The notes: generated by a model not told the origin, from the sequence alone. A stretch of DNA of 64,000 nt from Candidatus Nomurabacteria bacterium (GCA_943350875.1 CALRAL010000001.1:4829-68828), one strand, 5' to 3'. Shown: positions 1,325 to 15,030, counted from the stretch's first letter. Numbers and translations: made by a program.

Positions 1325-1433
1325 TCTTTAACATCCTTGACTTTTTGCGGGGGGGGGGTTATACTCCCTTTTGGATCAAGGTTCTTCGAAATTCATTGAG
1401 GAATAATACAAGGATCCAGAAAGTGAAAAAAGA

Positions 1434-1925
1434 ATGAAAAATAATGATATTAAACCTTTTAAAATAAGGTTGGTTCATAAAAATGACATTCTAATTCTTT
1501 CGGAAATATTTTCAAAAGTATTTACCGAAGCAGATATAAAAAAGCCTTGGGATAAAGATAATTCATATAAACATCTTATGTACTGGTTAAAAATACAGCC
1601 AGATATGTTCTTTGGTGCATTTAAAGATAATAAACCAATAGGAGCTATTGCTGTTAATATAAAGCCATGGAGAACTGGTATGAGATGTTGTGCTGGAATT
1701 ATTTTTGTTGATTCTCAATATAAAAAACAAAAAATTGCAAAATTCTTGTTTAAAAAAATATTAGAGAAAGCTGTAGGGAAATACAAGGCAATGAGTTTCG
1801 AAGCAGTAACTTTTGCTGGTAAAGATTTCCCGTTGAATTGGTATGAGAGAGTTGGGCTTGTATCTGACAAAAACACAGTACTCATAAAAGGTGATTGTCT
1901 AGATATATTAAAAAATCTCTTTTAA
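1434..1925 (+). CDS. GNAT-family N-acetyltransferase
   Basis: 163 aa; acetyl-CoA binding-like core (IGAIAVNIKPW...GIIFVDSQYKKQKIAKFL), typical GNAT size. Confidence 0.5.
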   Translation: MKNNDIKPFKIRLVHKNDILILSEIFSKVFTEADIKKPWDKDNSYKHLMYWLKIQPDMFFGAFKDNKPIGAIAVNIKPWRTGMRCCAGIIFVDSQYKKQKIAKFLFKKILEKAVGKYKAMSFEAVTFAGKDFPLNWYERVGLVSDKNTVLIKGDCLDILKNLF

Positions 1926-10091: not shown

Positions 10092-10144
10092 CCTCACCCC
10101 TTCGCCCCTCTCCTTGATAAGGAGAGGGGTTGGGGGAGAGGTGA
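10092..10144. repeat. GC-rich palindromic element, copy A (core CCCCTCTCCTTGATAAGGAGAGGGG)
   Basis: Perfect 11-bp-arm palindrome filling exactly the RodA/FtsW-folD intergenic gap. Near-identical cores at 10960-10984 and 11766-11790. Confidence 0.7.
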
Positions 10145-10959: not shown

Positions 10960-10990
10960 CCCCTCTCCTTATAAAGGAGAGGGGAAGATG
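10928..10990. repeat. GC-rich palindromic element, copy B (core CCCCTCTCCTTATAAAGGAGAGGGG, with CCTCACCCC flank repeats)
   Basis: Overlaps the last codons of folD; same family as 10092 and 11761. Confidence 0.7.
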
Positions 10991-11419: not shown

Positions 11420-11818
11420 ATGACTCTTTTAAAAAACAAATCCAAGTTACTTCCAAGACGTAGAGAATTAAGAAAAAACCAGACTAAACAAGAAGAAATT
11501 TTATGGGAAAAGATAAGAAATCGGAAACTTGGAATTAAATTTAAAAGGCAGTATAGTATAGGTGGTTATGTTTTAGATTTTTATTCTCCAGAATGTAAAT
11601 TAGTTATAGAATTAGATGGTAACCAGCATTTAGCAAAAGAGAATGCTTTGTATGATAGATACAGGACAGAATATTTGGAAATTTTAGGTTGTGAAGTTTT
11701 AAGGATTAAAAATAGTGAATTAGATAAAAATTTGGAAAAAGTTTTATTACAAATTAAGAAGTTTACCCCTCTCCTTGATAAGGAGAGGGGAAGGGGTGAG
11801 GTGAATATGAATTTATGA
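11420..11818 (+). CDS. DUF559 / Vsr-like endonuclease domain protein
   Basis: LRKNQTKQEEILWEKIRNRKLGIKFKRQYSIGGYVLDFY...LVIELDGNQH...EILGCEVLRIKNSEL matches the DUF559 consensus. Confidence 0.65.
   Translation: MTLLKNKSKLLPRRRELRKNQTKQEEILWEKIRNRKLGIKFKRQYSIGGYVLDFYSPECKLVIELDGNQHLAKENALYDRYRTEYLEILGCEVLRIKNSELDKNLEKVLLQIKKFTPLLDKERGRGEVNMNL
11761..11806. repeat. GC-rich palindromic element, copy C
   Basis: Core identical to copy A, followed by GGGGTGAGGTGA; overlaps the 3' end of the DUF559 gene and abuts the PAP2 start. Confidence 0.7.
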
Positions 11819-12441: not shown

Positions 12442-13212
12442 ATGACTCAAAAAACTGATAAAAATAGTAATGTTCGTACTTGGAATTCAGATATGAGAGA
12501 TGAAATAGTATCATCTTTTGTAAAAAATTTACCGAGTTTGAACGAAAATGTTTCTTTTGATTTGACGGATAAATATATAAAAAAACCGTTAACATTTAAA
12601 AGAAAAATACGGGAAATATTTTTCCCAAGTGAAAATGGATTGACAAAAAGAGTAGAGGGAATTTATCCCGAATCTCTGCTTGAATTTCATGAAGGATGGG
12701 TGGATTTTTATAAAAATTTTGGAGAAACTATTGATCTTGCAAATTTTCCTTTGCCCAAGAATTTAATTCTTGAAGAAGGGAAAGAGTATTGGTCAATCGT
12801 GGTGCCAGATAGTATGAATCCGCAAAAAGCTTTTGAGCTACGGAAGCAGATTACTATAGTTTATGAAAATACATCAGTTGCAAGAATAATTGATGTGTTT
12901 CCAAGAATGAAAGTTTCTGTAATTCGTGCAGAGCAAAATGCAAAAGTTTTACACCCACACATTTCGCTTAATCACAGCATGAAACTTGGATTATGTGGCA
13001 CAACATTTACTGAAGGTTGTATTATTGATGGGAGAATTTTCAAAGATAATGGCATGCATTTAGATGTTGATGGTTGGACGCTTCATTGTGGTTCTCGTAA
13101 CGAGCATGGCGATGCCGTGAGCTCGGACTGGTGCGCCGGCAGGTTTCTGGTGAGTTGGAGCAATCCGGATAATGCCGGTCCGAACTTGTCTATCCGTCAG
13201 AAGCAGTTTTAA
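12442..13212 (+). CDS. DGR target (variable) protein; C-terminal FGE/C-type-lectin-like variable region
   Basis: The C-terminal 38 codons form the VR (13089-13203), matching the TR except at TR adenines. The C-terminus HCGSRNEHGDAVSSDWCAGRFLVSWSNPDNAGPNLSIRQ resembles DGR variable-protein ends. Confidence 0.85.
   Translation: MTQKTDKNSNVRTWNSDMRDEIVSSFVKNLPSLNENVSFDLTDKYIKKPLTFKRKIREIFFPSENGLTKRVEGIYPESLLEFHEGWVDFYKNFGETIDLANFPLPKNLILEEGKEYWSIVVPDSMNPQKAFELRKQITIVYENTSVARIIDVFPRMKVSVIRAEQNAKVLHPHISLNHSMKLGLCGTTFTEGCIIDGRIFKDNGMHLDVDGWTLHCGSRNEHGDAVSSDWCAGRFLVSWSNPDNAGPNLSIRQKQF
13089..13203 (+). repeat. DGR variable repeat (VR), 115 nt
   Basis: Aligns base-for-base with 13480-13594. All ~16 mismatches fall where the TR has A (A to C/G/T). 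The 3' 24 nt are identical (IMH-like). Confidence 0.9.
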
Positions 13213-13479: not shown

Positions 13480-13594
13480 TGGTTCTCGTAACGAGAATGG
13501 CAATGCCGTGAACTCGAACTGGAACGACGACAAGTTTCAAGTGAATTGGAACAATCCGAATAATGCCAATCCGAACTTGTCTATCCGTCAGAAG
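13480..13594 (+). repeat. DGR template repeat (TR), 115 nt
   Basis: Adenine-rich invariant copy of the VR (it would encode the Asn-rich peptide GSRNENGNAVNSNWNDDKFQVNWNNPNNANPNLSIRQ); lies between the target and avd/RT. Confidence 0.9.
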
Positions 13595-13610
13595 TTTCTC
13601 ATTTAATCCG

Positions 13611-13997
13611 CTACAAACTTAATTGTGGCGGATTTTGTGTTTGAGCGTATTTGAGCCAGCCGTTGGTCATTTTAGAAATTTCCTGTAATTTTAGCTCTAT
13701 ATTCAGATACACTTTTTCGGTGATTATTTTTAATTCAAATTCTATTCTAAATAACTGTTTTAATGTTTCTATTTGAATTCTTGCTTTTTTCAGTGAAATC
13801 ACTTTTTCATATTTTGCTTCCAGTGAAGCGCTAATCAAAAGTGAGAAACTTTTTAAAAATTCTTTTTCAATATAGCTATGGATTCCCAATTTATCTCGTT
13901 TTGGCAATTTGTTGCCAATTAAATACACATAGGCGTATAATTTCCCCATCTTATGCACAACAGGGATGTCAAAATTGCGTTGGGGGGGGGGTTCCAT
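13611..13997 (-). CDS. avd: Accessory variability determinant (Avd) / four-helix-bundle protein
   Basis: 128 aa; NFDIPVVHKMGKLYAYVYLIGNKLPKRDKLGIHSYIEKEFLKSFSLLISASLEA parallels the Avd/TIGR02436 consensus (F.DL.VWQKA..L...IY.LTK.FPK.E.FGL.SQ.RRAA.SI.SNIAEG). The N-terminal codons include the C10 run. Confidence 0.7.
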   Translation of the reverse strand: MEPPPQRNFDIPVVHKMGKLYAYVYLIGNKLPKRDKLGIHSYIEKEFLKSFSLLISASLEAKYEKVISLKKARIQIETLKQLFRIEFELKIITEKVYLNIELKLQEISKMTNGWLKYAQTQNPPQLSL

Positions 13998-15030
13998 TCA
14001 AAGTCTTTTTCATAATATAGTTAGTCTATCAAATTTACTGAAAGCTTGGAAGGAATTTAAAAAATGCAAAAATTCTAAAACGGATATTGCCGAATTTGAG
14101 TTTAATTTGGAAAATAATTTATTTTCTTTGTATCAGGATTTAATAAACAAAACTTACAAACCAGATCCATACCAAGCATTTTATGTGTATGATCCAAAAA
14201 AGCGACATATTCATAAAGCTGTAGTTCGGGATAGAGTTTTACATCAAGCTATCTTCAGAATTTTATATCATATTTTTGATAAGCATTTTATTTTTGATTC
14301 ATATTCTTCAAGATTAAACAAGGGAACACATAAAGCTTCGAAAAGACTTTTTAGAGCTTTAAGAAAAGAGAGCAAAAACTGGCACACGCCAGTTTTTGCT
14401 CTTAAATGCGATATTAGAAAATTCTTTGATTCTATAAATCATGATATTTTATTTTCTCTAATCAAAAAGAAAATTACAGATTCAGAAACTCTCATACTTT
14501 TAGATCAGATTTTAAAAAGTTTTGGAAAAAGTCCAAATACTGGACTGCCATTGGGCAATGTGACGAGTCAGCTTTTTGCTAATATTTATCTCAATGAGTT
14601 TGACCAATTTATGAAACACAAATTAAAAGTTAGATATTATTTTAGATATGCGGATGACTTTGTGATAATAGATAGAAATAAAGAATCTTTAGAAAATTAT
14701 CTTTCAAATATTAAATTATTTTTAGCAGAAAATCTAAAATTAGAATTGCACCCCGGTAAAGTATTTATACGAAAATTAAGACAGGGAATTGATTTTGTGG
14801 GTTATGTGATTTTACCAAATGTTGCAGTTTTAAGAACTAAAACAAAAAACAGGATTTTTAAAAAGCTAAAAAATGCTAAAAGCAAATTATTAGAAGGAAA
14901 AATAAGCCAAGAAAATTTTGAACAAATTAAAGCATCTTATATGGGTGTTTTGAAGCATTGTAAAAATAAAGAGATTAAGAGGAAAATAAAATTTGCATAT
15001 TTACTAGAAAACATATACCCGTACACTTAA
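13966..15030 (+). CDS. DGR reverse transcriptase
   Basis: RT motifs: CDIRKFFDSINHDIL, GLPLGNVTSQLFANIYLNEFD (the DGR-typical SQ/FANIYL block), YFRYADDFVII (YxDD), LHPGKV. It directly follows the TR. The G10 tract lies in codons 6-9. Confidence 0.85.
   Translation: MSKLRWGGGSIQSLFHNIVSLSNLLKAWKEFKKCKNSKTDIAEFEFNLENNLFSLYQDLINKTYKPDPYQAFYVYDPKKRHIHKAVVRDRVLHQAIFRILYHIFDKHFIFDSYSSRLNKGTHKASKRLFRALRKESKNWHTPVFALKCDIRKFFDSINHDILFSLIKKKITDSETLILLDQILKSFGKSPNTGLPLGNVTSQLFANIYLNEFDQFMKHKLKVRYYFRYADDFVIIDRNKESLENYLSNIKLFLAENLKLELHPGKVFIRKLRQGIDFVGYVILPNVAVLRTKTKNRIFKKLKNAKSKLLEGKISQENFEQIKASYMGVLKHCKNKEIKRKIKFAYLLENIYPYT

Follow-up and report, generated by a model that had tools for sequence, protein, structure and literature searches.

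A homopolymeric G/C tract shared by the 5′ ends of the avd and reverse transcriptase (RT) genes of a DGR is, in our assessment, best read as a conserved contingency switch that works by strand slippage and controls both DGR enzymes. We hold this reading with moderate confidence (probability of roughly 0.62), and heterogeneity within populations and effects on expression are inferred. The tract was found in a 64,000-nt stretch of DNA (the window, from whose first nucleotide all positions are counted). Its location inside both ORFs, the family-wide conservation of its site, the variability of its length, and the sharing by the two genes of a single class of tract lengths that supplies their starts, mostly without an alternative start codon, are shown. 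The switch reading is preferred because the site is conserved while its length is variable, because avd and RT share one ATG class, because other repeats substitute for the tract in some relatives, and because relatives that lack the tract have both genes in frame. The sequence-only reading had proposed a phase-variable ON/OFF switch for DGR activity; the proposal is supported comparatively, with no read-level or expression data.

The ten-G run was read from the window sequence at 13982-13991, within ttGGGGGGGGGGtt, where its local context is ...AAAATTGCGTT-GGGGGGGGGG-TTCCATTC.... The GC content of the window is 34.8%; base composition predicts 0.003 runs of G10 or longer, and a first-order Markov model predicts 0.02. 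The 64 kb contains just two G/C runs that exceed 6, namely this run and a second G10 at 1349-1358. In the RT frame from the ATG at 13966 (MSKLRWGGGS...), the run forms codons 6-9, and in the avd frame from the ATG at 13997 (MEPPPQ...), it forms codons 3-5 and the first base of codon 6. As assembled, the two ORFs overlap head-to-head by 32 nt (13966-13997). The tract meets the simple-sequence criterion for a contingency locus, which is a repeat of hypermutable length that lies in an ORF or promoter and is more frequent than chance predicts. The sequence-only reading had placed the run in RT codons 6-9 and avd codons 3-5, had put the overlap at about 30 nt, and had described long G runs as otherwise rare, with one other G10. 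All four claims held, with the first base of avd codon 6 to be added and no further run above 6 in the window. The features that define the locus are the following.

13982-13991, G10 on the plus strand and C10 on the minus strand: homopolymer within the coding 5′ ends of RT and avd, the proposed slipped-strand switch
13966-15030, plus strand: DGR reverse transcriptase ORF (G10 phase), 354 aa, MSKLRWGGGS, RVT_1 match with E=3.2e-22
13611-13997, minus strand: avd ORF (G10 phase), 128 aa, N-terminus MEPPPQRNFDIPVVHK, bAvd (PF22296)
13480-13594, plus strand: DGR template repeat (TR), intergenic
13089-13203, plus strand: DGR variable repeat (VR), at the 3′ end of the target gene
12442-13212, plus strand: DGR target gene, 256 aa, the ORF carrying the VR
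13605-13634, plus strand: terminator-like hairpin with a 12-bp stem and a T-rich tail, spanning the avd stop codon

In the proposed mechanism, the start codons of avd and RT would precede the tract on their respective strands, and both genes would read across it, so that it is decoded as Pro codons in Avd and as Gly codons in RT. Strand slippage of one base in either direction during replication would change the frames of both enzymes together, and a later slip would restore them, giving a heritable and reversible ON/OFF control of mutagenic retrohoming. High switching rates within populations and loss of the Avd and RT proteins in the out-of-frame classes are inferences. The benefit is likewise inferred, and might be, for example, the freezing of a successful VR variant or a limit on the cost of the RT.

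That this is a true DGR is shown by an RVT_1 domain, a bAvd domain, and a TR/VR pair whose mismatches fall only at adenines. The TR and VR are 115 nt long and 86% identical, and all 16 mismatches (16/16) lie at TR adenines. The RT translation contains LGNVTSQ, an instance of the [I/L]GxxxSQ motif that serves as the criterion for a DGR-type RT; its NCBIfam matches to other RT types all fell below cut-off. The avd product matched bAvd PF22296 (E=5.6e-12, 46.6 bits against a cut-off of 40), starting at residue 14, and NF033474 DivGenRetAVD (E=2.5e-15, 56.6 bits, below the curated cut-off of 80), starting at residue 12, and the further DGR criterion of an Avd gene adjoining the RT is met. The VR ends 9 nt before the target stop codon, and the target product had no match in Pfam or NCBIfam. 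The order of the locus is target gene with VR, TR, inverted avd, and RT, which likely corresponds to the ‘B3’ architecture described for 90% of CPR DGRs (PMC5758913). The DGR of the window is a Patescibacteria element, and DGR clade 2 is restricted to this phylum (PMC8144416).

Several other elements were observed around the locus. The only hairpin found lies 3′ of the TR, with none 3′ of the VR; it lies 11 nt past the TR, and may serve as a terminator in both directions or as an RNA element of the DGR. A GC-rich palindrome, CCCCTCTCCTTGATAAGGAGAGGGG, occurs at three gene boundaries near the DGR (10105-10135, 10960-10990, and 11766-11796), resembles REP-like or terminator repeats, and yields spurious ORF ends of the ‘GEGRRGEV’ type. 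A gene labelled DUF559/MTES_1575 in Pfam (Vsr-like endonuclease fold) lies at 11420-11818, about 600 bp upstream of the DGR target gene.

The response of the window to a change in tract length was deduced from the start codons and the promoter-like site on either side of the tract.

13953-13955, plus strand: family-typical RT ATG, in frame at G9/G12 only (MHNRDVKIALGGGSIQ at G9), the antisense of the Avd His15 codon CAT
14011-14013, minus strand: family-typical avd ATG, in frame at G9/G12 only (MKKTLNGTPPQRNFDIPVVHK), 22 nt from the tract, with a geometry as in relatives such as MEKTLNCPPPDA
13947-13949, minus strand: internal avd ATG (Met17), the start in the source annotation, giving a 112-aa product
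13912-13941, plus strand: promoter-like TTGCCA-18-TATAAT, 11/12 consensus matches, about 12 nt upstream of RT ATG 13953

At G10, the assembled length, RT is open from ATG 13966 and also from TTG 13975, and avd from ATG 13997, so that both are ON. At G9 or G12, both are again ON, through RT ATG 13953 and avd ATG 14013. At G8 or G11, RT retains merely GTG 13841 or TTG 13901, both upstream of the promoter-like site (OFF), and avd has no upstream start and is left with the internal Met17 alone (OFF for full-length Avd). Judged by these in silico reading frames, the tract of the window is ON in two of three phases and would be a leakier switch than the simple model; expression in each phase is inferred. 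The earlier claim that a slip would take both genes out of frame was therefore only partly borne out, since a −1 slip in the window (to G9) stays ON.

The promoter-like site on the RT side is embedded in avd codons (IGN...KLY). The TTGCCA-18-TATAAT element is found again in the closest clade, at a distance of about 40 nt on the upstream side of the tract. A promoter-like score of at least 10 was obtained for 18% of loci compared with 3% of control segments. Because the site lies within conserved avd codons, its conservation is not independent evidence. A consensus scan of the minus strand upstream of 14013 revealed no promoter for avd.

One alternative holds that the tract has a frame-independent role, as a poly-Pro/poly-Gly linker, a pause or binding site, or a divergent-promoter element, and that both genes start downstream of it. 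It is supported by the source annotation, which places the avd start at Met17, downstream of the tract; by promoter-like elements that overlap the tract region; and by the PPP of many annotated Avd N-termini, which take the form M-x-PPP in the family alignment. Against it, the RT has no in-frame ATG, GTG, or TTG in the 25 codons downstream of the tract, and the conserved RT N-terminal motif SLFHNIVSLSNLLKAW comes directly after the tract. On the avd side, an alignment of 38 homologues showed that a conserved F/x-D-I-P-V-V-H-K segment precedes Met17, and an ATG at the equivalent position is present in a minority of loci, most clades having no Met there. Changes of tract length by non-multiples of three, the existence of loci with no tract or with other repeats, and the absence of a conserved motif in the tract flanks across related loci also argue against this alternative. 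A single G10, moreover, cannot form an intramolecular quadruplex. Taken together, the frame-independent role is considered very unlikely.

Since the RT has no downstream start and Avd homology extends upstream of Met17, the tract is concluded to be read through by both genes, and the finding that would have refuted a switch, namely that both genes start downstream of the tract, was not made. A main avd start at Met17 (13949), which would leave the tract in the 5′ UTR, had been raised as a point to check; it was rejected on the basis of family homology and of two profile HMMs that begin upstream. Met17 is retained as a possible tract-independent fallback start in the subclade of the window. Some Avd relatives carry the same N-terminal extension without prolines (MKNIITTSSDSFDIPIVH and others).

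Conservation of the tract was assessed in loci collected without regard to it. One genome per species was scanned with Avd peptide motifs only, which yielded 80 Patescibacteria loci, with 41-82% Avd identity to the query, from sources including Nomurabacteria, Paceibacterota, Saccharibacteria-labelled bins, Moranbacteria, Yanofskybacteria, Taylorbacteria, and Uhrbacteria. In 73 of the 80 loci, the avd 5′ end carries, exactly at this site, a poly-C/G run of 7-14 (mode 9-10), despite Avd identities as low as 41%. The 364 kb of sequence flanking these loci contain just three other G/C runs of at least 7. Of the seven exceptions, two are truncated by the contig end. The tract is absent from L031 and L067, and avd and RT are both in frame in these loci. 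In L035, a (CCGGT)9 pentanucleotide repeat occupies the tract site (2447-2491), and both genes would be in frame at 8 or 11 copies. In L021, the same avd/RT junction (2462-2499) carries C9 followed by an imperfect (CT)n with nine perfect copies, and both genes would be in frame with 7 or 10 copies of CT or, alternatively, with C8. Tract-less relatives align with TTSS, IASK, or LNTN in place of PPP. We conclude that the length of the tract is not tied to codons, nor its sequence to protein function. A pattern scan of metagenomes added 92 matches, which were mostly chance poly-C, with about 20 true DGR loci among them.

The dependence of both genes on tract length was then evaluated in silico by rebuilding each locus with a tract of L−1, L, and L+1 and searching the upstream side for ATGs in frame. 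A single length class supplies such ATGs to avd and RT together in 67 of the 69 intact loci. Among loci with exactly one ATG class per gene, the avd class equals the RT class in 42 of 43 (binomial p=3e-19 against an expectation of 1/3). This p-value overstates independence, as indels in the overlap shift both ORFs equally, the loci are related, and phase is partly inherited. Independent support for the shared phase comes from two further properties. First, the distance of the avd ATG from the tract varies from 3 to 27 nt, always in the shared phase. Second, the family-typical RT ATG reads, on the opposite strand, as a conserved Avd His codon. This codon is CAT in 54 of 56 loci and CAC in 2, whereas CAT makes up 68% of the other His codons in these genes (p=1.7e-7). 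In most loci, the region downstream of the tract holds no start codon. A change in length thus toggles the avd and RT reading frames in silico, and at that level alone the corresponding contingency-locus criterion is met. The proposal that one slippery tract is common to the 5′ ends of avd and RT, such that a slip affects both, is strongly supported by this comparative evidence.

Some loci were unusual in other ways. The RT frame of L036 runs 651 codons past the tract, about twice the usual length, which suggests fusion to a downstream gene or a lost stop codon. One metagenomic bin (MFIK01, Giovannonibacteria) carries two related avd/RT loci, L029 and L040, of which one has C9 and the other has collapsed to C4, with its avd ATG out of frame.

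Tract lengths in 83 loci with distinct flanks (genome, metagenome, and window) were distributed as 7 in 1 locus, 8 in 11, 9 in 31, 10 in 26, 11 in 10, 12 in 2, 13 in 1, and 14 in 1. Near-identical loci were obtained by scanning metagenomes for clade-specific flanks and by exact-protein look-ups, and revealed the following differences.

L187, L189, and L192: C9; L188, L190, L191, L193, and L194: C6; flanks 100% identical over 400 nt on each side
L133: C10, with avd and RT in frame; L006: C11; flank identity 98-99%
L089: C12; L002: C9; flank identity 95-98%
L133: C10; L156: C9; flank identity 92-93%

The criterion that the length of a contingency locus differs between close relatives is met by the C6/C9 and C10/C11 pairs, but is not shown for the window's own strain, for which a contig look-up (four similar places collapsed) returned only one other copy, L081, which is identical. 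The L187-L194 loci (avd P0020) come from eight assemblies of different samples, and their 3-nt difference keeps the frame; this may reflect selection for the ON phase in that lineage. In L002, L102, L113, L128, L145, and L168, the Avd His codon is CAC and the usual RT ATG is lost. At the assembled C9, the RT of this group can be read in frame from a TTG that precedes the tract by 7 nt, whereas its avd has the internal ATG only; the close relative L089 (C12) is in the same non-canonical phase. The working phase may therefore differ in this lineage.

A second alternative, that the tract or its length is a homopolymer sequencing or assembly error, was considered at this point. Homopolymers are error-prone, some of the related genomes are nanopore assemblies (MFD bins), and assembled frames are often broken. 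Against this, more than 90 assemblies, produced by many projects on many platforms, carry the tract at this one site, and other homopolymers are almost missing from the same contigs. In addition, independent assemblies with identical flanks agreed in length in 6 of 6 (C9), 4 of 4 (C9), and 3 of 3 (C10) cases. Because independent assemblies reproduce the consensus length, the tract lengths are not random assembly noise, and an artefact is all but excluded.

The assembled phase was determined for 67 loci, of which 17 are in the shared ATG class (ON), 38 are one base too long (ON+1), and 12 are one base short. The skew toward ON+1 is significant (chi-square p=2e-4). An upstream start of any kind is missing for RT in 26 of 69 loci and for avd in 43 of 69. 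Out-of-frame loci retain intact long ORFs beyond the tract, which argues for intermittent use and against decay. Some ‘OFF’ calls might nevertheless be partly ON, as the Nomurabacteria subclade that includes the window has avd Met17 and, on the RT side, often a TTG that precedes the tract by 7 nt. Rescue of the ‘OFF’ phases by alternative starts was also considered, and was rejected: compared with the third phase, such starts were not enriched in the assembled ‘OFF’ phase for RT (24/50 versus 16/50, p=0.15) or for avd (9/50 versus 7/50).

The ON+1 excess can be accommodated by more than one reading. In C. jejuni, G8-G9 tracts show an insertion bias and G11 tracts a deletion bias, with a modal length of 9 (PMC3401435). 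By analogy, similar biases combined with selection for OFF might account for the excess, and leaky +1 decoding might do so as well. A third alternative, recoding, takes up the latter possibility and proposes that the tract is a programmed slippery site, that ON+1 is the working state, and that both enzymes are made constantly at a low, tuned level. The frame would be restored either by ribosomes that shift +1, at CCC-C when they translate avd and at GGG-G when they translate RT, or by RNA polymerase dropping a base. In support of recoding, 38 of the 67 loci are exactly one base over the in-frame class, the length states are reproducible across assemblies with ORFs intact, and, with one extra base in the tract, either strand would need a shift of +1. 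CCC-C is a classic example of a site prone to +1 shifts, restrained by m1G37 and EF-P.

Other observations do not favor recoding. The required shift varies, with none needed in 17 loci, −1 nt in 38, and +1 nt in 12, so that the criterion of the same shift throughout is not met. Close relatives are in different phases (L133 at C10, L006 at C11, L156 at C9). The pentanucleotide and dinucleotide repeats that replace or extend the tract suit DNA slippage, and not ribosomal slippage. RNA polymerase slippage during elongation is documented for A/T runs rather than G/C runs. Recoding remains possible but is judged rather unlikely. A bolder reading combines the two as a three-level dimmer on both strands, in which DNA slippage would set a heritable phase and ON+1 would be decoded weakly by +1 frameshifting. 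This is regarded as unlikely. If it were true, the same ten bp would be both a phase switch and a dual-strand frameshift site (CCC-C for Avd, GGG-G for RT), and a dangerous mutagenesis machine would be held at trace activity in most cells.

The second G10 of the window lies in a different setting.

1349-1358, plus strand: second G10, within the 17-nt spacer of a promoter-like site, in the context ...TTTTTGC-GGGGGGGGGG-TTATACT...
1337-1365, plus strand: promoter-like TTGACT-17-TATACT, 10/12 consensus matches, 69 nt upstream of the GNAT ATG
1434-1925, plus strand: GNAT acetyltransferase gene, an ORF whose homologues carry PF00583

The earlier placement of this run between a Cys-rich protein gene and the GNAT gene held (Cys-rich ORF 929-1324, GNAT ATG 1434). 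A tract between the −35 and −10 hexamers is the criterion for a phase-variable promoter spacer of the porA/opc type, and is met here by consensus match only, function being inferred. The run would set the −35/−10 spacing of the promoter-like site upstream of GNAT, which is 17 nt at G10. No run of at least 7 was found upstream of GNAT homologues in 13 loci from four homologue look-ups (59-69% identity). In L174 and L175, the place that G10-TTATAC occupies in the window, about 85-110 nt before the GNAT start, holds an interrupted G-rich stretch, GGGGATGGATTGGGGAGGGGTTATGC, which might be a degenerate or ancestral form of the second tract. A second contingency site is therefore plausible yet unsupported, and is put forward only as a possibility.

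The proposed avd/RT switch resembles the poly-G/C contingency loci of C. jejuni, Neisseria, and Haemophilus in several respects. A G/C homopolymer lies near the 5′ end of an ORF, lengths cluster at 8-11 with a mode of 9-10 (9 in C. jejuni; PMC3401435), close relatives differ in length, and frames toggle in silico. Unlike those loci, the DGR tract serves two divergent, overlapping genes, each of which reads it on a different strand. It would also control mutagenesis machinery, whereas the known loci control surface structures or restriction-modification genes. The hosts also differ, being free-living or episymbiotic Patescibacteria in the one case and host-adapted pathogens in the other. In H. 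influenzae, a TA repeat controls the two divergent genes hifA and hifB. In N. meningitidis, poly-G/C tracts between the −35 and −10 elements of porA and opc set promoter strength. The DGR tract differs from both in that it would act through overlapping reading frames, and not through promoter spacing. The porA/opc spacers do resemble the geometry of the second G10 (1349-1358), for which neither length variation nor conservation was found.

The DGR of Bordetella phage BPP-1 (avd-TR-brt) shares with the window an Avd protein, an RT with the [I/L]GxxxSQ motif, a TR, a VR at the 3′ end of the target, and the adenine-specific signature. It differs in that the avd gene of the window is inverted, with its 5′ end overlapping that of the RT gene, and the TR lies upstream of the avd 3′ end. 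Switchable mutators are known in which repeats turn mismatch-repair genes on and off. There, as proposed here, a reversible mutation controls the capacity to generate mutations; they alter the genome-wide rate, whereas the hypermutation gated by the DGR tract would be confined to one target gene. Phage contingency loci (bioRxiv 10.1101/2025.10.21.683753) provide another case of slippage-prone bet-hedging outside the classical pathogens, but involve other genes and hosts, have no link to a retroelement, and include no tract used on two strands.

Simple-sequence phase variation and DGRs are each known already, separately. The literature searched contained no link of DGRs to repeats, phase variation, or avd/RT frameshifting, although a mention in Paul et al. 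2017 (CPR DGRs) is not excluded; the DGR surveys PMC5758913 and PMC8144416 do not mention a repeat switch. What appears to be new is one repeat, used on both strands by two overlapping divergent genes and conserved in a phylum-level DGR clade, that is inferred to control targeted hypermutation.

DGRs are especially common in the ultra-small Patescibacteria, and their on/off control is largely unknown. To our knowledge, prokaryotes have no natural system of targeted protein hypermutation other than DGRs. The tract poses a problem for annotation, since gene callers mis-start or truncate avd and RT at this point; in the source annotation of the window, avd starts at Met17. The switch reading predicts that tract phase should track VR diversity in metagenome time series. 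Of the related DGRs, 50 of 67 were assembled outside the ON phase, and many may thus have been silent when sampled. If the reading is correct, a built-in, heritable, and reversible switch would explain how a lineage is able to vary a binding protein and later fix a variant that has proved successful.
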